From a virus (lineage: Duplodnaviria; Caudoviricetes), in the IMG/VR virus record IMGVR_UViG_3300010163_000003, positions 1 to 64,000 of that record: 64,000 bases of DNA; one strand, given 5' to 3'. A model generated the notes under the pieces. The model did no database searches and was not told the DNA's origin. It saw nothing but the letters and a program-made list of their open reading frames with translations. Positions 3 through 31,135 of this stretch are shown here, piece after piece. The translations under genes and the position numbers were made by a program. Numbering within the stretch: position 1 is the stretch's first letter; each line of letters opens with the position of its first letter.

Positions 3-446
3 ATGCATGGCTATACAACGTTCATCAGTGGAGGAGCACAAGGCGTAGATCAACTTGCGTTCTGGGCTGTAAACCGTCTAAAAACAAAGGGATATCCCGT
101 AACCAACATTGTTTACATTCCCTTTAAAGGACAAAACAGTCGTTGGAGCGAAAAAGGAACATTCTCTAAACATGAATATGGCCTTATGGTGTGCAAGTAC
201 GCTGATAGGGTAAGAATCATTACCAATAGCGTAAACGACGCACATTTCAATGAGGTTAAAGAGGCTATGCTGAAACGCAATCGCGCCATGGTGGACGATA
301 GCGATGCAGTGTTTGGAGTATATTGGGATAACACATGGCAAACTAGCAACGCTAAAGACCCTATGACAGCCTATACTCTGCGCTATGGGAAAAACAAAAA
401 TAAACCCTACTACGTATTTCATCCAACAGAACTTAGATTCGTATAA
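3..446 (+). CDS. SLOG/YspA-like (DUF1273-type) protein, probably 5'-truncated by the window edge
   Basis: ISGGAQGVDQ and KRNRAMVDDSD motifs typical of YspA/SLOG proteins. Confidence 0.7.
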   Translation: MHGYTTFISGGAQGVDQLAFWAVNRLKTKGYPVTNIVYIPFKGQNSRWSEKGTFSKHEYGLMVCKYADRVRIITNSVNDAHFNEVKEAMLKRNRAMVDDSDAVFGVYWDNTWQTSNAKDPMTAYTLRYGKNKNKPYYVFHPTELRFV

Positions 447-17862: not shown

Positions 17863-18000
17863 GTCGGTATAGCTTAAGGTAAAGCAATTGTTTATTTTTA
17901 AACAATATTGAAAGGATAATAATTCCAAAGGGCTTTCATATGTTTAACTTCATTGTATAATAAACAATGTCTAACAGTTCAATTCTGTTTACCGACACCA
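17863..18000 (+). ncRNA. tRNA-like RNA with 62-nt insertion in the anticodon loop
   Basis: Perfect acceptor gtcggta/taccgac+ACCA, D-arm, 10-bp anticodon stem, T-arm aacag-ttcaatt-ctgtt. Confidence 0.65.
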
Positions 18001-18855
18001 TAGCCAGTGTATTAGTAAGATACACTTCCCGCCAGAGTTTTGTGCATGAATATACCTCCTAAAAATATTTTTCACATACTTACTAATACATTGGCTACAT
18101 TGCTTTCCACAATTTTTTCTTCTTTCTGCCACCGCAATCAGCGGTGGTCTATGGTCCCGAATCGTATGGGATGTTTCCCCAGTTCAATTCTGGGCGGGAC
18201 CACAGAACCCCTTGCTTTCTTACAGGTATGTTTGCGTTTGGGTAAAAACGGAGCTGGTAGCGATTTAGTTCCCTAGTGATTCCCTTGGGTAAGGTTCAAA
18301 AAGAAAGCCAGCAAGTAGCTATTCTTACCCGGAATAGTGAAAAAGTCACACTGTATAAACAAGTATTGAACATCATCCGTAAGAGTTAATCGCCTTATGG
18401 GTAATGGACAATACAGAGTGATGTGCGAGGACTGATTATCCTCTCTGGAGAGTCCCCAGAAGTGTGATATTAAAATTATCTATTGGAACGGCGAGTAATG
18501 TGCGTAGTACAAATGTTGGGGGCTTCAATCTCTCTGTTCCAAGTTTTATGCAAACCTTCGATATAAGTATGAATGGTCTTGTGGAGCGTTGATGTATGAG
18601 GAATAAGGTATCTTGAGAAGTAGCATATGGTCAGTGATAGTATGTGAAAATCTGGTGATACAAACTTCAATAACAGCGGAGCTTAGAAGCAAGGTATTGA
18701 ATTACTTATTGGTCAAGACTAAGTTGCTTGATACTGATTCTTGGGTTATATACCCAATCCGATAGGAGCAGTAAAGGAATGTTGTGGGGCATCCTGGTTG
18801 ATTAACAACTGGTGTCAATGGATGCAACATTACGCCGGGGGAAGCGTAATCTTAC

Positions 18856-18947
18856 GCTGTCATAGCTTAACGTAAAGCACCCTATAAAATAGTAATGATA
18901 TCTAAATCTATAATAGGGAGTTTTCAGTACAAATCTGACTGACAGCC
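18856..18947 (+). ncRNA. tRNA-like RNA with 27-nt anticodon loop
   Basis: Acceptor gctgtca/tgacagc, D-arm nearly identical to the 17863 element, stem ccctat/ataggg, degenerate T-arm. Confidence 0.55.
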
Positions 18948-19039
18948 ACTGTGGATAAGTTTTTATTATTATCCATGGGTAGCACCCCTCTATGTAATAT
19001 TGCCCAATGGTTCTTGTGATTTCTCCATTGGGCAAATAC

Positions 19040-19114
19040 AGAGGTATAGCCAAGAGGTAAGGCACTAGACTTTGACTCTATTATACGCAGGTTCGAATCC
19101 TGCTACCTCTGCCA
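19040..19114 (+). tRNA. tRNA-Gln(UUG)
   Basis: Acceptor agaggta/tacctct, anticodon loop ctttgac, ggttcgaatcc, CCA. Confidence 0.9.
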
Positions 19115-19193
19115 TGGACGAAAGTCCAATGAACGGTGAGAATTCGCCCTTCGTATTTTATCTTCTTTTATGGGTGGCTAACGCCACCCGTAT

Positions 19194-19268
19194 GGTCCGT
19201 TAGGCAAGCGGTTAAGCCACAGCCCTTTCAAGGCTGCATCGTGGGTTCAAATCCCGCACGGATCACCA
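19194..19268 (+). tRNA. tRNA-Glu(UUC)
   Basis: Anticodon arm cagcc-ctttcaa-ggctg, ggttcaaatcc, CCA. Confidence 0.92.
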
Positions 19269-19375
19269 CTCATGTCTCATTCCTCCAGTACAAGACATGA
19301 AACTTGCTGAATTGGGCATAATATTTGTTATGCCCAACATGCCGCTGTGGTGGAACAGGTAGACGCAAGGGACTT

Positions 19376-19985
19376 CGACAATTCTAGAAGAGGTGACAAG
19401 ACAATGAAAGTTATTAACATTTATACATGCCCCGATGGAAGAGTTAGGGCATATTGTAGAGATGATAATAATAATGTAAAAATTGTTTCGTACCCTCGAA
19501 TTCTAATGGAAGAGAAATTGGGCAGACCATTAGAGCCATATGAAGATGTTCATCATATCGATGGAAATAAGTTAAATAACTCTATTGATAATCTTGCTTT
19601 AATTAATCATGGGGATCATCAAAAAATGCATATGGAACATGACACAAAATATCATAATAAAGAAATGACTTGTGATGTGTGTGGTAAAACTTTCATATGG
19701 ACTATAAAATCCCAAAGAAATTATTATTGTGATTTGAATAGAGGCAAAAATAGAATTATATCTTGTTCCAGAAAATGTAGCTCTTATTATGGTAGACAGG
19801 AGCAGCTTGGGAGGAATCCCAAGGCTGAATGCGGGCTAAACGGTGAACCCTTTCCCAATGGGAATACCGTGCCAAATAAGTGAAAACTTATGTGTGTAGA
19901 GAATATACACCCGCCATCCAGAACGGATGAAGATTGATTCCAGACCACAAAACTTTAAATAGGTAGCGAAAGCTATAGTGGTACG
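19376..19985 (+). ncRNA. Group I intron in the tRNA-Leu anticodon, HNH-containing
   Basis: U|...G| boundaries inside the anticodon; R-like gtagagaata about 19895-19904 and S-like aagattgattcc about 19930-19941. Confidence 0.8.
19404..19883 (+). CDS. Intron-encoded HNH homing endonuclease
   Basis: R.LMEEKLGRPL...VHHIDGNKLNN..DNL HNH motif plus C-terminal CxxC..CS..C; gaggtg RBS before ATG 19404. Confidence 0.85.
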   Translation: MKVINIYTCPDGRVRAYCRDDNNNVKIVSYPRILMEEKLGRPLEPYEDVHHIDGNKLNNSIDNLALINHGDHQKMHMEHDTKYHNKEMTCDVCGKTFIWTIKSQRNYYCDLNRGKNRIISCSRKCSSYYGRQEQLGRNPKAECGLNGEPFPNGNTVPNK

Positions 19986-20950: not shown

Positions 20951-21490
20951 ATGGCTAGTTATCCAGGCGCACGTAGAATATGGAATAAACATAGCGAATT
21001 CGCTGGCAAAGCTGATGCTGACAAGGTTCAAAAAGAAATTGACCTTATTGCATCTCAAGACCCTAACGGCAAATGTACCGATGAAGGATTGGTAGACTAT
21101 GCAAGAAACAATCCTAACAGCGAATCTCATAACTGCTTCGAGTGGAACGACACAACTGCGGCAGAAAAATACAGATTACATCAAGCTGCTCGTATTAAAG
21201 TTTCCATCATAACTGTATACGACAAAACTGACAAAGATACTGAAAGCAGCGTCAATCAAAATACGAGCGTCCCAATTCAGGTAGTTACTAACCATGCTTT
21301 AAAGACACCAGGAGATGGGCATAAGAATATTGAATTCATTCTTCAGGACAAGAATGATTCAAAAGTTCTTGACGAACAAATGAAGCAAGCATGCATTCAG
21401 TTCATGGATAATTTTGAACGTAGATGGTGTCTTGCCCCATCATTCAATCAAGTATTCCCCAAACTACAAGCATTCGTAAACTCGTTATAA
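20951..21490 (+). CDS. Conserved phage protein (H.CFEW.D..AAEKYRLHQA motif), candidate accessory of the Cas7-like locus
   Basis: gaggag RBS; motif recognised by eye; sits immediately upstream of the pentamer array. Confidence 0.65.
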   Translation: MASYPGARRIWNKHSEFAGKADADKVQKEIDLIASQDPNGKCTDEGLVDYARNNPNSESHNCFEWNDTTAAEKYRLHQAARIKVSIITVYDKTDKDTESSVNQNTSVPIQVVTNHALKTPGDGHKNIEFILQDKNDSKVLDEQMKQACIQFMDNFERRWCLAPSFNQVFPKLQAFVNSL

Positions 21491-21530
21491 AAGTATGGGG
21501 CGCTAACGCGCCCCTACTGAATTATAAATT

Positions 21531-21791
21531 ACATGCCAAAATAGGCAATCTTAAATTATCATAGCACACGCTAACATATTATAATATAATACAAAAAATT
21601 AAATCAATAAGCGAGGTCATGACCTCAATACACCAAATGTTACGATAATAAGATTTCAACATAAACTACTTTATTGTAATTTATAATATTGATGTTCGTG
21701 GCTTCGCTTATTGATTTAATAATCAATAAATTTAGATCAAACTATCCTAAATGAAGCAAAAATATGATATTATATTATACCGTAAAATAGA
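21531..21791 (+). repeat. Pentamer (NYA-NN) array part 1: three modules (21531-21595, 21625-21685, 21732-21791), module 2 enclosed by a long stem
   Basis: A at every 5th base, e.g. tta ga|tca aa|cta tc|cta aa|tga ag|caa aa|ata tg|ata tt|ata tt|ata cc|gta aa|ata ga; stem 21598-21630/21687-21720 with G-U pairs. Confidence 0.85.
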
Positions 21792-21801
21792 GGATTTAAA
21801 T

Positions 21802-22011
21802 ATGGATGAAAACGAAAATGTAACTATTTGTTGTGATTGTCAATATTGTTGCGACAAATATAGTTTCCCATTACCAAATGATATACCCGAATTTAACGGA
21901 AATAATTTTCTTCTTAAAGCATATTGTTGTTGTATGGAAGATTGTGAGCTATACGGCAAACGTATTGATATGCTTGGGATTACTTCCTGTGAATATTTTA
22001 AAGAATTATAG
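21802..22011 (+). CDS. Small Cys-rich hypothetical protein inside the array
   Basis: gagg RBS before ATG 21802; CCDC.YCC, CCC..DC. Confidence 0.55.
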   Translation: MDENENVTICCDCQYCCDKYSFPLPNDIPEFNGNNFLLKAYCCCMEDCELYGKRIDMLGITSCEYFKEL

Positions 22012-22024
22012 GAGAGATAGTTAG

Positions 22025-22561
22025 TTGATATATAAAACAACAGTTTATATTCCAAGTGGAACGATTGAGAGAGTAAACAGTTTACTTTGTGCTCTTTCTT
22101 TTAAAGATCTTTCTGAAAAAGAAATTAGCAAATATAAGTTTAGAACCAACTCATGTGAAACTATTTTTAATGTGAAGTTCGAAGATAATAGCACATTAAC
22201 ATATGAATTATGTTCTGGCGATTCTAATTATTATGACAATGTTGTATGGAGAAGCGCTGATGGGATTGAAGAAACAATAGAATGTTCTTTCAGATTATTC
22301 AATGAGATAGAAATTGAAATCAATTCAAACAAATATATTGTTAATCTCATAGAAAATCCTCCTGAACATGGCAAAAAAAGATTAAACGTTACTGTGAATT
22401 GTTTAGCTACTTATAATAGTAGCATACTCGTTCCATATACTATGAATCTTGAAGAAGCTATACAATATGCTGAAAAACATATTGATGATATACCCCTTGG
22501 TTTATTGGAATATGTGTCAGACAGTGACAGTATCGATGAAGAAAATTGCAGTTTCGATTAA
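22025..22561 (+). CDS. Hypothetical protein inside the array
   Basis: ggag RBS, TTG start, 178 aa. Confidence 0.55.
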   Translation: MIYKTTVYIPSGTIERVNSLLCALSFKDLSEKEISKYKFRTNSCETIFNVKFEDNSTLTYELCSGDSNYYDNVVWRSADGIEETIECSFRLFNEIEIEINSNKYIVNLIENPPEHGKKRLNVTVNCLATYNSSILVPYTMNLEEAIQYAEKHIDDIPLGLLEYVSDSDSIDEENCSFD

Positions 22562-22607
22562 TAAGCTTTAGCTAGCTTTTAGCTAATTTTCTAGCTAAAA
22601 GCTAGCT

Positions 22608-23680
22608 TTATAGCTTCAAATATTGACTTAAGTATTGTAAGTCGATAAACGAGATTTAGTCTCAATACATGCTATACTATCATAATGTATAACACTATAT
22701 CACACGACAATATATAATATCTTAAGTCAATATTTGAAGCTATAAGTTTCAAAACAGGCCAAAATAGTCTAGCTTAGAATACTATCAGCGTACTATAGGA
22801 TATATTAAAACATTTTATGGTCTCAAATATTGACTTTAAGTCAATGACATCCTATTACAACCCATCTCAACTTAGCTTATAATAGCATAAAATAATATAT
22901 AGTAATATTATTACTTAAAGTCAATATTTGAGACCATAAAGGTCAGCAGATTACAAACTAAGCTTAATTTAGGGTAAATTAAAGTAGGACAATTTTAGCA
23001 TATGCTAGGATATTTTACTTTATGGTTTCAAATATTAGCTTTAAGCTAAAATACAAGCTATGCAATCCTAAAATAAATTAGCACAATCTATGCTATTATA
23101 TGACACTATAAAATATTTAGCTTAAGTCAATATTTGAAACCATAAATTTTTATGGTTTAAGACAAAACGCCATAAAATACGATAGCACATGTAATCATAT
23201 GCAACCATAGGACATGCTATCATAAGATATTTTACTTTATGGTTTCAAATATTGACTTAAGTTAATAACAGAAAAGAGATGTATAATAATGACTATATTA
23301 CTGACTTATCTGGTTTTTGTAATAAAAAATTCCCAGTTGAAAAACATTTTTATGTTAAAACTAATATTTAAGGTCATAAACCTTATCAGAATGTAATGTA
23401 ATCTATCGCATCTCATGACAACATATGGCACCTTAACATAATATAAAACAGTTTATGATCTTAAATATTAGTTTTAGCTAATAATAACAAACAAAAATAC
23501 TATATGATAAAACACTTCATTATAATTTAGACCAAAGTAAAAATAATACAAAGTATTTTATATGTAGACACCGCTACTTTTACAAAAGTAGCGGTGTGTG
23601 CTTATAAAAGCAAGCTTAAAGTAGGTCATTTAAAAATAGTTTAGCACATCCCACCTTAAGCTAATATAGCACATAATATC
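22608..23680 (+). repeat. Pentamer (NYA-NN) array part 2: nine modules separated by alternating-orientation ~26-bp repeats
   Basis: Modules 22662-22721, 22749-22814, 22842-22906, 22943-23019, 23053-23117, 23172-23236, 23383-23452, 23487-23562, 23611-23680; repeat consensus tttatggtYtcaaatattgacttaag. Confidence 0.9.
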
Positions 23681-23714
23681 ATGATATTTTAATTATTATT
23701 TGGAGGAATTAAAA

Positions 23715-24446
23715 ATGGCCACAAAAACTAAAGACGAAAACAACACTCCTATTGAAGAAAAGCTTACTCCGGGCACAGTTATCAAAATGAAACCCTTTGT
23801 TAAGGAACGACTTCAGGTAACTATTTGCAGCGATGACCACTGCGATCTTATTTTGAATAAGATGACACAAGAAGCTATTGAAGAAATCAAAAGCACACAA
23901 ACTAAGACGGCTAAGGGCACAAAGAAAGCGGTCAATATGTGGCAAAGGCTTATTGAGGGCCTGCATTGGATGGACAAGTATACTGGCCCGTATGTAGATG
24001 ATAAAGGCAAAATTCTGCATACAGAAGAAGCATACTATGACCTACTTAAAACCAATCGTATCGGTTACGATGCAAGTGGCATCAAGAAGGGTCTCTGCGA
24101 TGCGGCTGTTCGTGTACTTGGCGAATCTAAATCTACCATTATCAATGCCAATCTTCAGGTTATTCCTGAGAAGAGAAATCTCGTTCAGATTGAATTCAAC
24201 GAGAGTGATATTGATGAATCCGTAATCACTAACTGGAAAGGCTCTGCTTTCATTACCTATCGTACTATCCTGCGCGGATGGTCTAGTACATTTGCTGTAG
24301 AATATCTGCCAGATAATTTGTCTCGTGATCAGGTTATCGAGATGTTCCAGGCGATGGGATTTAGCGGCGGTCTTGGCGCACATCGTGTTGGGCTTAAAGG
24401 CGGCACTCATGGTAAATTCCATGTAGATAAGGTAATGCAACTCTAA
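23715..24446 (+). CDS. Stand-alone Cas7/RAMP-like RNA-binding protein (Vipr-like candidate), 243 aa
   Basis: ggagg RBS; internal IGYDASGIKKGLCDAA helix, YR..L.GW...F.VEY strand, C-terminal Gly-rich loop GFSGGLGAHR..LKGGTHGKFHV. Confidence 0.7.
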   Translation: MATKTKDENNTPIEEKLTPGTVIKMKPFVKERLQVTICSDDHCDLILNKMTQEAIEEIKSTQTKTAKGTKKAVNMWQRLIEGLHWMDKYTGPYVDDKGKILHTEEAYYDLLKTNRIGYDASGIKKGLCDAAVRVLGESKSTIINANLQVIPEKRNLVQIEFNESDIDESVITNWKGSAFITYRTILRGWSSTFAVEYLPDNLSRDQVIEMFQAMGFSGGLGAHRVGLKGGTHGKFHVDKVMQL

Positions 24447-24465: not shown

Positions 24466-25428
24466 ATGGCTAAGAAGTATATTGATTCTCAAGCCGTTAT
24501 AGACAACCTAGATACTAACGGTGACGAGCTTACAGACAAGAGTAAAAGACTTGAAGTAATAAATAAATGCGGTTTAACCCAAAGACTTCAAGAAGTACTG
24601 ATTACGCCAGCTATGGCAACCGGACTTCTTCGCCTTAATCATGGTACTCGTGTTCGTCATGGCAATAAAGAAAAGATGAAATTTGACATGACTCATGGCC
24701 TTTGGGGAACCTGTGATAGCATGATTATGTTTAGTCCTAATGGTAATCTTGTTAATGGCAAAATGATATTAGAGGCTATACAAGAAAGCGGAATTGCACA
24801 AAGACTTGTGGTTATGACAGGCGTTGTACCGCATGTAGAAATAGATACTGGCGCTAATAGAACTCCGTTTGAAGTCATAACCATGTATAGAATTGGTGGC
24901 AGTAATTATGATGCTATACGTACTCAAAAAGTTATATCCGCTATTGGTAGCATGCTGCGTCGTAAATGTAGGCATGGCATGCGAATAGAAAATAGCGATT
25001 ATTGTCGGCTTTTTGAAACGTATAAAGATACCCTGCTTGAACTCCGTGATGTGTTAAATACATATCAGGGAGATGCTTATATCAATGCAGCTTTGATAGC
25101 AGCAAGATTAGATGGCGTTGATATTGGAGACATTTCTAGTTTTAAAGCTGCTTATTGTAAAATGGGTAGAAGTTTAAACGTGGATGATGCTCCAGTCAAC
25201 GTTTTTTGGGATTATTATCATGAAATACTCAGTGGATGCAGCACGAATCATTTTAAAGATAAGAAATTTGCAGCTACACAAACTGCCTTATATGCTTATC
25301 TGAATCAAACTACAATGACAAAGAAAGATTATATGCACTCCAGCTCTAAAGCGATTCATGATTACGATATTACGTGGCTGAATCAAACTATAAATGGAGG
25401 TTATGATTCTACAAAGTTCCATCTATAA
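24466..25428 (+). CDS. ParB/Srx-like N-terminal domain protein with degenerate active-site motif
   Basis: ITPAMA..LL..N...R, G.W, I.F...G.L.NGKMILEAI..SG, IDTG..R pattern; DGQHR replaced by NGKMI. Confidence 0.55.
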   Translation: MAKKYIDSQAVIDNLDTNGDELTDKSKRLEVINKCGLTQRLQEVLITPAMATGLLRLNHGTRVRHGNKEKMKFDMTHGLWGTCDSMIMFSPNGNLVNGKMILEAIQESGIAQRLVVMTGVVPHVEIDTGANRTPFEVITMYRIGGSNYDAIRTQKVISAIGSMLRRKCRHGMRIENSDYCRLFETYKDTLLELRDVLNTYQGDAYINAALIAARLDGVDIGDISSFKAAYCKMGRSLNVDDAPVNVFWDYYHEILSGCSTNHFKDKKFAATQTALYAYLNQTTMTKKDYMHSSSKAIHDYDITWLNQTINGGYDSTKFHL

Positions 25429-26101: not shown

Positions 26102-26728
26102 ATGAACACAAAAAGAGTAATGCGAGGAATTTGTACACTGTGTCTCGTAGGAGCAGCATCTATCTTCTCAGCCGGAGCTTCATCTACAGAGACAAAAATC
26201 GTTATGGATCTTAAAGCTAAACAAATATCTGAGCAAGTTAAAATTATGGAGACTGCACACGATATGGCTGAATGTGCTAGAGCATTAGGCGAAAATGAAA
26301 ATAGCGTCGTTATACATACAGCGAAAGATTATTATAATGACGCTATGAACGCCCATAAGACTTTTTCTTCTGAATATGAAACTCTTTCTAACATGTATAA
26401 TGCTGAAGTTAAAGCAGAAGAAGAACAACGTCAAAAAGGTTCTTATATTGGCAAGTTTCTCGTTAGCGCCTATACTCCTTCTCCAAGCGAAAATGGAGGA
26501 TATGCTGTAACATGTACAGGCGTACCGCTTGCAGGGAACGAATGGGCATTATGTGCCGTAGACCCTAATGTTATTCCTCTTGGTTCTACTATTTATATTG
26601 AAGGCGTAGGTAATGTACGATGCCAGGATACAGGCGGGGCCATTAAAGGAAATCGAATTGACCTTCTGGTCGGATATGGAGAAGCAAATCGATGGGGAGT
26701 ACAAACAAGAAACGTATATTTAAGGTAA
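26102..26728 (+). CDS. Secreted 3D-domain (cell-wall lytic transglycosylase-like) protein
   Basis: Signal-peptide-like N-terminus; SAY, AVDPNVIPLGS, DTGGAIKGNRID motifs. Confidence 0.88.
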   Translation: MNTKRVMRGICTLCLVGAASIFSAGASSTETKIVMDLKAKQISEQVKIMETAHDMAECARALGENENSVVIHTAKDYYNDAMNAHKTFSSEYETLSNMYNAEVKAEEEQRQKGSYIGKFLVSAYTPSPSENGGYAVTCTGVPLAGNEWALCAVDPNVIPLGSTIYIEGVGNVRCQDTGGAIKGNRIDLLVGYGEANRWGVQTRNVYLR

Positions 26729-26894
26729 AAGATATGGCAATAAAATATGTTATAGAATATTCTAGCGTAAATGGGACAGTAGAAACATTTTGTGACAATT
26801 ATCATGATTTCGAACAAAACTTATTTGCTGATGTAGAAAGAGAAGTTCGAAGAGGCGCTACTGAAATTAGAGTTACTATTGCTGGCGATAAAAA

Positions 26895-27458
26895 ATGATT
26901 ACAGTTAAACCATTAGAATGGTATCCATGTGGGAATACAGGATGTATTGCATCATCTATGTCTGTTGACGTTGGACTTAAATTAATTATTGATATTCGAT
27001 ATTTTATAGAGCCTACAAAAAATGGATATGATGCAATTTTAATGTTTAAAATAGAAACAAATTATGAACATTTCGATACCATTGAAGAGGCAAAAGCTTA
27101 TTGCGATCAAGAAAATCAAAAATTTTGGCAAGAAGTATATGAGCGAATGCTAAGTAATGTGATAACAATAACTGCTCTGCCAAACATTGAAAAACGCGGT
27201 GAAATTATGAAACTTATTGATGCTAATCATTTAGTGTTTAATGCTGAAAACGAAAGATATGCAACTATGCGTGAAATTGCCAACGAACCTAAAGTAGACC
27301 CAGTTCATGCGGCAGGCGCATGCTATTGCAAAGAATGCAAACATTGCTTCTATGACGAAATTAACAAACATAATTATTGCAACCGCCCTCTTGGTTTAAT
27401 TGGGTATTCAATCGTAAGAGGCGATGATTTTTGTAGTCATGGAGAAAAGAAAAACTAA
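26895..27458 (+). CDS. Hypothetical protein, C-terminal CxxC domain
   Basis: ORF; VDPVHAAGACYCKECKHC..DDFCSHGE type phage domain. Confidence 0.55.
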   Translation: MITVKPLEWYPCGNTGCIASSMSVDVGLKLIIDIRYFIEPTKNGYDAILMFKIETNYEHFDTIEEAKAYCDQENQKFWQEVYERMLSNVITITALPNIEKRGEIMKLIDANHLVFNAENERYATMREIANEPKVDPVHAAGACYCKECKHCFYDEINKHNYCNRPLGLIGYSIVRGDDFCSHGEKKN

Positions 27459-27472
27459 TCTATAAAATAATA

Positions 27473-27538
27473 CATGGTGCGTTCCTCTCTCTTTTATGTT
27501 ATAATATTTATAGCTATTAAGAGGAGGAACGCACCATG
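27473..27538 (+). promoter_or_regulatory. RBS/start-sequestering hairpin with an internal extended -10 promoter
   Basis: catggtgcgttcctc (27473-27487) pairs with gaggaacgcaccatg (27524-27538); TGnTATAAT at 27497-27505 in the loop. Confidence 0.7.
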
Positions 27539-28567
27539 AACGCTTCTGAGAAAAAGGCCATAGTTAAACGTGCATGTGAGATTATTTACTCTAACGAGGG
27601 TGACTATGGCTCTGTAAACAAGAATGACAATGGTGCTTTGTCAATAGGCAAAGTGCAATGGCACGCAGATAGAGCATTATCTCTTTTAAGAGATATCATT
27701 AAAGCTAACGAATCTCAAGCTAAGACAATCTTAGGGGATACTCTTTTTAATGAAATTAAAACTACTACCAGCAATTGGAGTAATCGTATAGTTAATACAA
27801 TCGAAGCAAACTGCATTACTAAATTACTCATAACAAGTGCCGGTAAAAAAGTACAGGATAAGCTTGCTGAGAAAGATGTAGAAAGCTATATTGATATTGG
27901 AATATCTTATGGTATTCAAGATCCCGATTCTCTTATCTACTTTGCTGATGGAATCAATCAATATGGTTCATATTCTAAAGTGTGGAAAAATATCGCTATT
28001 AAATCTGTACATAATGGTGATACGTTAGACTCTATACATGCCGCAGCATCTTCCATGGCAAGTCAGTATATCTCTAGACGTATTAAGACATATAACATCA
28101 TTAAAGGGCATAATACAGTAAGTAAATCTAATACCTACACTAAATATAAAGACTCAAATAAAGTAAAATACATACAAGGTTGGGTAAATACTCAATTATT
28201 AGGTACTAACTTTACAGCTTTAAGTGTAGATGGCGTTATAGGTCTTAAAACTAAAGCCGGGATTGTTAAGTGTTTACAACAGTGTTTAAATCATGAATTT
28301 AATGCCAATCTTGATGTGGATGGAATATTTGGTCGCATGACGCAAATAGCATGCCCTACGGTTACTACATATAAGTGCAATTCTGGAGATATAGTTCACA
28401 TCATACAATTTGCTTTATATTGTAACGATATAGAGATAGATAAGTTTGATTATTATTATGGCTCTAAAACTGCTAATGCTGTAGGGATATTTCAAAGACG
28501 TAACAATTTACCGATTACCGAACGAGTTGATGATACAGTCTTTAAGTCGCTATTCGATGGCTTTTAA
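27536..28567 (+). CDS. Putative endolysin: lysozyme-like N-terminal domain plus peptidoglycan-binding repeats
   Basis: NEGDYGSVN.NDNGALSIGK.QWH; L.VDG.IG..T and L.VDGIFG..T PG-binding motifs. Confidence 0.75.
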   Translation: MNASEKKAIVKRACEIIYSNEGDYGSVNKNDNGALSIGKVQWHADRALSLLRDIIKANESQAKTILGDTLFNEIKTTTSNWSNRIVNTIEANCITKLLITSAGKKVQDKLAEKDVESYIDIGISYGIQDPDSLIYFADGINQYGSYSKVWKNIAIKSVHNGDTLDSIHAAASSMASQYISRRIKTYNIIKGHNTVSKSNTYTKYKDSNKVKYIQGWVNTQLLGTNFTALSVDGVIGLKTKAGIVKCLQQCLNHEFNANLDVDGIFGRMTQIACPTVTTYKCNSGDIVHIIQFALYCNDIEIDKFDYYYGSKTANAVGIFQRRNNLPITERVDDTVFKSLFDGF

Positions 28568-29326: not shown

Positions 29327-31135
29327 TTGTTAGTAGTTACTCAACTTACTAATGGTAATCTTAGCATAAAATCTGATTACTATTATAAAGATAGAATAAA
29401 ACGAATACCATCGGCACAATTTGATCCTGAACGTAAAGAATGGGTCATATTGAAAGAGTATTTGGCAAATCTGGAACAAGAGTTCGCAGGAGAACTTGTA
29501 TATAAAACACCCAGGTGGATCATTAGAGGCGATCCTATGCCAGATTACTCTGATATGTACAAAATTACAAATAATAATATAACTCTTCCAAATTTAAAGA
29601 TAGAACCATATGATTATCAAAAGTATGGAATTAAGTTTATGATTGATAAAATTCAAAAACATAATTTCGTACTTAATGCAGACGATGTAGGCTTGGGAAA
29701 GACTTTTCAAGCAATTGCAGTTATAAAATGGTTTATGGAGAACTATCTATTTAGGAAAATTCTTATTGTTTGTAAAAAATCTATAAAGAAACAATGGATG
29801 GATGAATTCAGTAAATTTACTGATATTCACGACAATATTCCTATTGTTTATACAAAAACTACCCCTAAAAAGAGAGCAGCAGCATATGCTGTTATCGACA
29901 ATTCTCCACAAGGAATATTGATAACTAATTATCATACATTCCTTAATGATACAGATAAAATTAAAAGTTTAGGCTTTGATATGTGTGTCATTGATGAAGT
30001 TCATTCAGTGAAAGCACGTAATGGTAAGCTTAATAATAATATCTCTCAGGTTGTTCGTGGTAAACCTACTATATTTCTTACTGGCACTCCTATTATGTCT
30101 AGACCAGAAGATATATTTGGCATAGTTCAAATGGTTAATCGCAACTATTTCGGCTCATATTTTGATTTCAGCAGAAGATTTTTAACTACTGACTTATATA
30201 GCAAATTTGGACCAAAAATAGTAGGAGCAAAGAATCTTGATGAGCTTAGAAATAAAGTTCAAGATATTGTTATTAGGCGAACAGAATATGAGGTAGCAGT
30301 ACAATTACCTGAAGTTATTTTGCAACAGAAAGATTGTGAAATGGACCCCACTCAGGTTAAGATTGCTAAAGCTATACATGCCAAAAGCGAATTTATAATG
30401 GATGGAATGGAGTCTTTAATGACAGAAGCTGCTAAGCCTAATGTCGATAAAGATGTTATTGCTAATAAATTAAAAGTACTTGACGCGCAATCTAAAGCAT
30501 TGATTGCTGCTCGTCAAGCTGTAGCAAATGATCCTCGTTTATTCCTATCTAGTAATTCTATAGCGATGAGAAAAGATTATGGGATTTTAATTCCTAAATC
30601 TTATACAATGTCTCCTAAAACAGAATCCATATTAGAAACAGTGGAGGATATCGTTAGTAATGGAGATAAAGTTATCTTGTTTACTAAGTTTAGAACTTGT
30701 GCTAGAATGGTAAAACAAGATATAGAGCAGAATCTTAAAACAAATGCATTGTTATATACTGGTGGCGAAAACGATGATCAGCGCAATGACGCGCTTGATT
30801 TATTCCGTAATACTTCTACTTATAATATATTAATAGGTACAGAAGCATTAGCAGAAGGAGTAAATCTTCAGGTTGCTAAATATGTTATAAATATAGACCA
30901 ACCTGACACATTTGCTATAAAGACGCAACGTATAGGTAGAGCAAGACGTGTAGGATCTCAATTTGATAATGTAATTGTATACGATATGATTACTAAATCA
31001 GAGGGGGGAGTTATTTCTAAAGACGAAGAAAGACTCCGTAATATAACTAACAATGAAGACCTTACAGATGCTCTTGTAACGCTTAATGAAGCTCAGCAAA
31101 AGGCAATTATTGAAGCTATGAAAGAGGAACAATAA
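29327..31135 (+). CDS. SNF2-family (DEAD/H) helicase
   Basis: DDVGLGKT, IDEVH, LTGTP, EGVNLQ, QRIGRARRVG. Confidence 0.9.
   Translation: MLVVTQLTNGNLSIKSDYYYKDRIKRIPSAQFDPERKEWVILKEYLANLEQEFAGELVYKTPRWIIRGDPMPDYSDMYKITNNNITLPNLKIEPYDYQKYGIKFMIDKIQKHNFVLNADDVGLGKTFQAIAVIKWFMENYLFRKILIVCKKSIKKQWMDEFSKFTDIHDNIPIVYTKTTPKKRAAAYAVIDNSPQGILITNYHTFLNDTDKIKSLGFDMCVIDEVHSVKARNGKLNNNISQVVRGKPTIFLTGTPIMSRPEDIFGIVQMVNRNYFGSYFDFSRRFLTTDLYSKFGPKIVGAKNLDELRNKVQDIVIRRTEYEVAVQLPEVILQQKDCEMDPTQVKIAKAIHAKSEFIMDGMESLMTEAAKPNVDKDVIANKLKVLDAQSKALIAARQAVANDPRLFLSSNSIAMRKDYGILIPKSYTMSPKTESILETVEDIVSNGDKVILFTKFRTCARMVKQDIEQNLKTNALLYTGGENDDQRNDALDLFRNTSTYNILIGTEALAEGVNLQVAKYVINIDQPDTFAIKTQRIGRARRVGSQFDNVIVYDMITKSEGGVISKDEERLRNITNNEDLTDALVTLNEAQQKAIIEAMKEEQ

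Follow-up and report, generated by a model that had tools for sequence, protein, structure and literature searches.

A probable VIPR system of a 218-kb phage with a guanine-free pentamer anchor and guides matching family-A DNA polymerase genes

Results of our analysis indicate that the 243-aa protein described here very probably functions as the Vipr subunit in a VIPR (Viral Interference Programmable Repeat) system that is carried by a 218-kb phage, acting by RNA-guided silencing of DNA as in Escherichia phage SUSP1. As a Vipr protein, it belongs to a kind that has been known since 2026. VIPR systems, as originally described, consist of a Cas7-like Vipr protein encoded by phages, together with vrRNAs, each of which is composed of 9-16 tandem YNNGG repeats and a 3' tail. 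The protein sequesters the GGY bases and leaves the NN dinucleotides to pair with double-stranded DNA in such a way that every third target base is skipped; by this means rival mobile elements are silenced at the level of transcription (10.64898/2026.04.26.720920). The gene of the 243-aa protein, designated here vipr, is preceded by an array of pentamer tracts, and at least two guides of this array, one for each strand of the target, match motifs B and C, respectively, of rival family-A DNA polymerases (PolA) of phage type.

The window, i.e., the whole 64,000-nt stretch of DNA that was analysed, covers the initial 64 kb of a phage genome that is complete at 218,431 bp and has direct terminal repeats (CheckV 100 %). 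The GC content of the window is 34 %, nearly all of its genes are located on the + strand, and the region of the array and vipr is very AT-rich (29 % GC). The open reading frame reported in an earlier note, which was made from the sequence alone, is real, has the coordinates given there and is preceded by a GGAGG site (Table 1). The same note had described the gene as standing without other cas genes. This holds for the complete genome, in which neither Cas1 (PF01867) nor RAMPs (PF03787) were found and in which the Vipr family is represented by exactly one gene; a search of the protein and its neighbours with NCBIfam and PADLOC also found nothing. The phage probably infects rumen or gut Clostridia. 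This hint of host range comes from the perfect PolA targets described below, which are present almost only in metagenome-assembled genomes (MAGs) of Clostridia, and from strong Shine-Dalgarno sites. Neither this Vipr nor its sub-branch was found in cultured phages among 50,697 records.

Structure prediction supports the Cas7/RAMP-like character of the protein that had been proposed in the earlier note. The AF2 model (pLDDT 84, pTM 0.79) has the Cas7 RAMP fold, with Csm3 and Cmr4 as the nearest solved folds, and its best structural matches are backbone Cas7 subunits. The three segments on which that proposal was based all find their counterparts in the model: LQVTICS, taken for an N-terminal strand together with DLIL, is beta-1, and DLIL is a short strand (residues 45-47); GYDASGIKKGLCDAA, likened to the RAMP helix, comprises a strand and the first RRM helix (residues 116-133); and the terminal GGLGAHR....GTHGKFHV is a Gly-rich loop of low confidence followed by the last strand (residues 235-242). 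The choice of these segments was not a matter of chance, since it is in them that conservation is highest among the ~70 known homologues, all metagenomic and several of them encoded on contigs of ~200 kb. In the alignment of 34 clade members, 41 columns are invariant, mostly in GYDASGIKKG and MGFxGGLGAHRVGLKGGTNGxF, which indicates strong purifying selection on the protein. No model of Pfam, NCBIfam or PADLOC matches it, and its match in PHROGs is the unnamed family phrog_4652.

The assignment of the protein to the Vipr superfamily rests on profiles, as its similarity to SUSP1 Vipr in a direct sequence comparison is weak (16 % identity). The profile of the clade matched PDB chain 36pp_D, the SUSP1 Vipr protein, with an E-value of 0.0024, which is a weak match; a profile of 87 sequences seeded on the 243-aa protein matched the same chain with an E-value of 8.2e-14 over its residues 24-188, i.e., nearly the whole chain. 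The comparison of the clade with the SUSP1 Vipr gene product by hhalign gave a probability of 91 % and an E-value of 9e-7. An exhaustive HMM search indicates that the superfamily comprises at least 2000 cluster representatives, and a distant member of it matches 151 phage records, chiefly those of Escherichia, Mycobacterium and Salmonella phages.

Two gaps upstream of vipr, at 21.5-21.7 kb and 22.6-23.7 kb, are filled by ~12 tracts of 6-14 pentamers. In an unbiased lag-5 autocorrelation scan of the 64-kb window, the top five 100-nt segments (23001, 22795, 23379, 21550 and 23177) all fall in these two gaps, which are non-coding and closely precede the gene, and the 5-nt periodicity of the gaps is the strongest in the genome. 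All 11 tracts that score at least 7 in the whole 218-kb genome, both strands included, are located at 21532-23681 and consist of 7-14 units each; the tract score reached 14, as compared with at most 9 in shuffles of the same AT-rich region. When the lag-5 scan was applied to SUSP1 as a positive control, all four published vrRNA sites were found, with a similar excess. A scan of the window for GGY/GG with a period of 5 revealed one weak run only, at ~8350 (5 of 9 units), and none near vipr.

The composition of the pentamers is Y, A, N, N and an A-biased n, with positions 3-4 unconstrained. Their constant bases are Y-A, and not the published GGY or that of the alternative published repeats NNNGG, YNNNG and NNNNG (10.64898/2026.04.26.720920). 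Three to five such tracts are present on the same strand within ~700 nt upstream of the homologues of vipr in L001 (the same as L005), L003 and L007, and nowhere else in these loci, which are independent contigs encoding Vipr proteins that are 55-59 % identical. The orthologous first guides of L001 and L007, compared over 13 units, differ 3, 0, 1, 1 and 7 times at pentamer positions 1 to 5, respectively. As the A is fixed, the Y alternates between T and C, the NN pair is maintained and changes accumulate at position 5, the unit can be written as n-Y-A / N-N.

The change of anchor has its counterpart in the protein. In the SUSP1 structure, H17 and D177 of Vipr read G1, R138 holds G2, on which W178 stacks, and Y3 lies in a pocket with R179 (10.64898/2026.04.26.720927). 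Mapping of these residues by alignments shows that H17, D177 and W178 are replaced by N48, A222 and H223, respectively; the thumb arginine (R138, here R183) and the arginine of the Y pocket (R179, here R224) are kept. We infer that the substitutions of the G readers may be the cause of the anchor change. In the nearest sub-branch (P0072, P0075, P0079 and P0084), the position of D177 is occupied by Ser, and the motif reads GIGS.. versus GIG[DE]WR. This sub-branch may use yet other anchors.

Table 1. Features of the vipr locus, of the Vipr protein and of the arrays of its relatives (positions in the window unless a contig or residues are named)
Feature	Position	Strand	Basis or remark
Candidate accessory (vap-like) gene, 179 aa, phrog_15946	20951..21490	+	precedes array in L001, L003, L007
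GC-rich hairpin GGGGCGC-TAAC-GCGCCCC	21497..21514		between 179-aa gene and first tract; terminator score on - strand only
Outlying array part	21532..21720	+	tract 21532-21596 (13 units), tract 21657-21691 (7 units)
Main vrRNA-like array, ~10 Y-A-N-N-n tracts, 23-28-nt alternating repeats	22608..23681	+	periodicity, pairing
Guide tract, 11 units	22663..22717	+	loop of perfect 25-bp stem 22608-22632 / 22721-22745
PolA motif B guide, 11 units, one with 2-nt spacer	22750..22805	+	target match
Guide tract, 12 units	22848..22907	+	loop of perfect 28-bp stem 22814-22841 / 22913-22940
Guide tract, 12 units	23059..23118	+	loop of stem 23019-23041 / 23124-23146
Guide tract, 10 units	23173..23222	+	followed by conserved TA(A/G)GA TATTT TACTT TATGG into next repeat arm
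PolA motif C guide, 13 units	23384..23448	+	target match
Guide tract, 9 units	23498..23542	+	followed by GC-rich hairpin 23556-23609
Guide tract, 13 units	23617..23681	+	immediately 5' of vipr ribosome-binding site
GGAGG Shine-Dalgarno sequence	23702..23706	+	8 nt before vipr ATG; from sequence
vipr gene, 243 aa	23715..24446	+	ATG at 23715, stop ending at 24446; Cas7-like RAMP
Vipr, beta-1	residues 31-39		AF2 model
Vipr, helical insertion	residues ~52-113		AF2 model
Vipr, RRM helix-1	residues 120-133		AF2 model
Vipr, thumb-like hairpin, including R183	residues ~163-187		AF2 model
Vipr, G-loop GGLGAHRVGLKGGTHG	residues 217-232		AF2 model
Relatives' arrays with capsid guides	L001:4495-4870, L003:1374-1904, L007:1285-1634		exact matches, many IMG/VR contigs

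The tracts are separated by repeats of 23-28 nt in alternating orientation, and the arms on the two sides of each tract are able to pair. A 701-nt stretch of the array folds far better than its shuffles, with z of -15.6 on the + strand and -13.4 on the - strand; the use of minimum-free-energy folding as an indicator of the strand was dropped, as both strands fold well. The second tract of the outlying part lies inside a 25-bp stem (21598-21622 / 21696-21720) of other sequence, the three mismatches of which are all G.U on the + strand. The layout is the same in the relatives L001, L003 and L007, with completely different arm sequences, and the outlying unit 21598-21720 contains a third arm sequence, which argues that it is the pairing that is conserved. 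The alternating repeats give rise to long stems that may serve as processing signals, and the punctuation of the array by hairpins suggests a processing route new to the VIPR descriptions. A pseudoknot tail similar to that of SUSP1 was not identified on the tracts of the window, and no hammerhead or other Rfam family was found in the array, the Rfam scan of 17-27 kb having returned tRNAs only. No promoter is claimed by us, as the counts in a sigma-70 promoter scan were not above those in shuffles. A perfect 16-bp palindrome (AGCTAGCTTTTAGCTA / TAGCTAAAAGCTAGCT) occupies positions 22570-22607 of the window, between the stop codon of ORF 22025-22561 and the first repeat arm. Farther upstream, the window contains three tRNA genes (17863-19265), in one of which the match, at 17863-17997, has 135 nt versus 71 positions of the model, which indicates an insertion; an ORF for an HNH-like protein (19347-19883) is located just 3' of the last tRNA gene.

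The tracts are presumably transcribed into RNA, with the + strand favoured. The strand decides how the anchor is to be read, as Y-A reads T-R on the other strand. The stem mismatches compatible with G.U pairing number 23 on the + strand and 9 on the - strand, although the copies are related and these counts are not independent. The relatives L001, L003 and L007 carry a terminator hairpin on the + strand after the first tract, followed by a U-run, and the stem of this terminator covaries (GGTGTGT vs. GGCACGT) around a conserved loop. Moreover, the vrRNAs of SUSP1 are co-oriented with vipr. On the other side, two terminator-like sites in the first gap of the window score on the - strand, and a U-R-y reading would match the strong-strong-weak pattern of conservation, as in G-G-Y. 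We consider the reading of the tracts from the + strand to be clearly the likelier of the two, with some room left for the opposite one.

For the identification of targets, positions 3-4 of each pentamer were joined, with one wildcard between them, in accordance with the published rule of a 1-nt skip. The 10-unit pattern derived in this way from tract 23394-23443 has 60 exact matches in IMG/VR, and all 60 encode, in the opposite sense, IVGHVHDEII, which we take to be the catalytic motif C of family-A DNA polymerases; the genes concerned belong to PF00476 (DNA_pol_A). Two units located 5' of this pattern also match in 25 of the 60 cases, and the three 3' units, which belong to the repeat arm, are at background level; the bounds of the motif C guide were set on this basis. 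The 12-unit pattern, in which 24 bases are specified, was found 25 times without mismatch in bacterial contigs of a one-genome-per-species collection of 596 Gb, in which we estimate that ~0.004 matches would be expected by chance. In 21 of the 25 the match extends to 26/26 nt over F-IVGHVHDE(I/M)IIE, to which the guide is antisense. The ORFs of the target genes, where complete on the fetched stretch, have mostly ~660-710 aa, and nearly all 25 come from gut or rumen MAGs of Clostridia (Ruminococcus, Oscillospiraceae, Acutalibacteraceae, Roseburia, Acetatifactor, Erysipelotrichaceae). Eight of the contigs with PolA targets (L074-L098) are labelled Ruminococcus.

The motif B guide matches 20-21 of 22 nt of the sequence encoding KGK(I/V)AELALGY, in the sense orientation, as compared with at most 18 when the order of units is shuffled, and its site precedes motif C by 462 nt in the same rival genes. 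When five registers were combined with four skips, only positions 3-4 with a skip of 1 reached at least 20/22 (19 sites), and the other 19 combinations gave at most 18. As the motif B guide had no part in the choice of the PolA loci, this result is an independent test of the way in which the guides are read. Guides of the relatives match, in the sense orientation, genes of HK97-type major capsid proteins (PF05065), namely in the regions encoding GGFLVPAEF(D/E) (5 matches) and VAIKVTEELLYD (more than 113 matches).

Among the ~12 tracts, five were scanned in public collections as exact patterns, one of which matched, and the motif B tract was matched in the fetched PolA loci. The four blank scans (guides starting at 22848, 23173, 23617 and 21532; 0 matches) concern patterns of the same design, so the empirical background is about zero. 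Guide 22848 had 0 matches also when as many as 3 mismatches were tolerated in five PolA-bearing MAGs, or as many as 2 in 401 related genomes, and in 770 kb around the PolA targets the guides other than the two PolA guides were at background level. In a search for self-targets with skips of 0-3, the best self matches equalled those of shuffled controls, and no PF00476 gene was found in the genome of this phage.

By analogy with SUSP1, each vrRNA made from the array would serve as the track for a polymer of many Vipr copies, in which every pentamer is taken by a single protomer. The constant n-Y-A would be held by the protomer and the two variable bases offered for pairing; the filament would engage double-stranded DNA in steps of two paired bases and one skipped target base, and a gene on which such a filament sits would not be expressed. 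The same analogy suggests that Vipr binds the tracts of the array and that its binding silences the target rather than cuts it, in support of what had been inferred in the earlier note.

The same complex of Vipr and vrRNA could act on RNA or cut its target, as an mRNA binder or a nuclease. The nearest solved folds, those of Csm3 and Cmr4, belong to RNA-cleaving proteins, the motif C guide would be antisense to PolA mRNA if transcribed from the + strand, and nucleases are carried by VIPR types III-V (10.64898/2026.04.26.720920). The statement of the earlier note that no nuclease motif is evident could be confirmed in part. An Asp residue, D44, which is conserved in most of the clade, follows beta-1 at the linear position of the catalytic Asp of Csm3; however, in deeper clade members and in the consensus of the superfamily this position is occupied by Pro, and no nuclease gene syntenic with vipr was found. 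Additionally, one strand of the array yields the sense guide for motif B and the antisense guide for motif C of the same gene, and the capsid guides of the relatives are sense, which fits the targeting of DNA rather than of mRNA. An action on RNA or by cutting appears to us improbable in the light of these observations.

We assign a still lower probability to the notion that the RAMP only processes or caps hairpin RNA in the manner of Cas6, or is a decoy for CRISPR RNAs of the host, and that the tracts work without Vipr. Mimics of Cas components are encoded by certain phages, Cas6 endoribonucleases are RAMPs, and the long stems flanking each tract resemble processing sites. Nevertheless, the structural matches of the protein favour backbone Cas7 over Cas6, and its homology to SUSP1 Vipr, which forms the filament on the repeats (10.64898/2026.04.26.720927), extends over its length. 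The binding of one protomer per repeat requires a 5-nt period and an anchor that is fixed in each unit, as observed here, and the substitutions in the G-loop track the change of the anchor. That we deal with the non-functional remains of a type III/VII CRISPR-Cas locus that was captured by the phage and has decayed, next to an unrelated AT-rich regulatory region mistaken for tracts, is hardly credible. The Cas7-like fold would agree with such an origin, and TA-rich patterns must be frequent at 29 % GC, but the protein is under strong purifying selection in the clade, members of which reside on ~200 kb contigs; no other cas gene and no match to Pfam RAMPs was found in the searches given above, the tract scores exceed those of shuffles of the same region, and the 26/26-nt PolA match in 21 genomes, together with the exclusive result for register and skip, is beyond what base composition can give. 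The assignment of the protein as the Vipr subunit of a DNA-silencing system is thus the one preferred by us.

The 179-aa gene located 5' of the array is a candidate accessory gene of the system. It has no similarity to SUSP1 vap1 or to Pfam or PDB sequences, and Foldseek found no PDB match for its model (pLDDT 75). Its look-alikes in the Atlas are hypothetical viral proteins, and a weak structural row resembling Rep3_N (TM 0.36-0.40) is not trusted by us. The two small ORFs that split the array in the window, 21751-22011 (86 aa, Cys-rich) and 22025-22561 (178 aa), are absent in the relatives; they look like an insertion into the array, as the 179-aa gene precedes the array directly in L001, L003 and L007. 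The 320-aa ORF located directly 3' of vipr (24466-25428) matches phrog_5931 and no model of Pfam, NCBIfam or PADLOC. It was ruled out as an accessory gene and is probably outside the system, as it is absent beside the homologues in L002 and L004. Farther downstream, the regions 26102-28567 and 29327-31135 encode a 3D-domain peptidase-like protein, a protein with peptidoglycan-binding domains and a SNF2-family helicase, which are ordinary phage functions.

VIPR was published only in 2026, and in the available texts all guides are anchored by guanines. A different anchor accompanied by matching substitutions of the reader residues offers a direct handle on the recognition of repeats by Vipr, and bears on the re-engineering of the anchor, e.g., for orthogonal VIPR tools within one cell. 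The range of VIPR would be widened to 200-kb phages of gut and rumen Clostridia. Guides that are directed to invariant catalytic motifs and leave the wobble position free would silence many rival phages at once.

As compared with the variants described in the accessible VIPR texts, the clade departs from every one of them in the anchor, the layout of the array, the anchor-reading residues and the carrier phage. That it constitutes a further type of VIPR, with a rewritten anchor, guides released from stems and near-universal motifs as targets, is a tentative proposal, the chances of which we put at slightly less than even; the clade may also sit inside one of the seven types published in those texts. 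In such a further type, the anchor would have been rewritten from G-G-Y to n-Y-A by way of H17->N, D177->A and W178->H, a double-strand-specific RNase would free the guides from a single long transcript by cutting the stems of the alternating repeats, and one guide aimed at motifs B or C of PolA or at motifs of HK97 capsid proteins would disable whole families of rival phages.

The closest known system is type II VIPR, described for Escherichia phage SUSP1 and a Pseudomonas fulva prophage and composed of Vipr, vap1 and vrRNAs (10.64898/2026.04.26.720920, 10.64898/2026.04.26.720927, 10.64898/2026.10.15.759431; PDB 36pp). The likeness concerns the minimal phage-borne locus, the homologous Vipr, and the tracts of 6-14 units, in each of which three bases are sequestered and two serve as the guide; these tracts are located on the strand of the gene if the favoured strand is assumed. 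In both systems one nucleotide is skipped, the skipped base being the wobble position of coding targets, and rival mobile elements are targeted on either strand, by several guides per element and with no self-target. The unit described here, n-Y-A / N-N, shares the 3 + 2 layout with the GGY / NN unit of SUSP1, but its anchor is n-Y-A instead of G-G-Y. Vipr is larger (243 aa vs. 195-202 aa in type II) and has a larger helical insertion; the ~12 guides are all upstream of the gene, in contrast to one upstream and three downstream in SUSP1; the guides are bounded by alternating inverted repeats that form stems of 23-28 bp, where in SUSP1 each guide carries a hairpin or pseudoknot tail; and no homologue of vap1, present in SUSP1, was recognised. 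The carrier is a 218-kb phage, apparently of Clostridia, and its guides are directed to universal catalytic motifs of a polymerase rather than to a satellite.

With the other published VIPR types the clade shares a degenerate anchor and a 5-nt period, but each of those types, as far as the accessible texts describe them, keeps at least one G in the anchor, and this clade keeps none. Published arrays vary in form, having hairpin or pseudoknot tails or being staggered, single or interspersed with hammerheads (10.64898/2026.04.26.720920), and a layout punctuated by hairpins of alternating orientation is not mentioned in the available parts of the VIPR texts. Csm3, Cmr4, type VII Cas7 and Cas7-11 are backbone RAMPs of class 1 CRISPR systems; the Vipr described here has the Cas7 RAMP fold of Csm3 and Cmr4 and does not match the Pfam RAMPs family. 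Unlike in systems of the Csm3/Cmr4 type, no cas10, csm, cmr or cas1 gene and no CRISPR array was found with the locus (PF01867 and PF03787 searched genome-wide, PADLOC and NCBIfam in the neighbourhood). The period of those systems is 6 nt, whereas here it is 5 nt, the guide is non-contiguous, with two of every five bases used, and the target is probably DNA.
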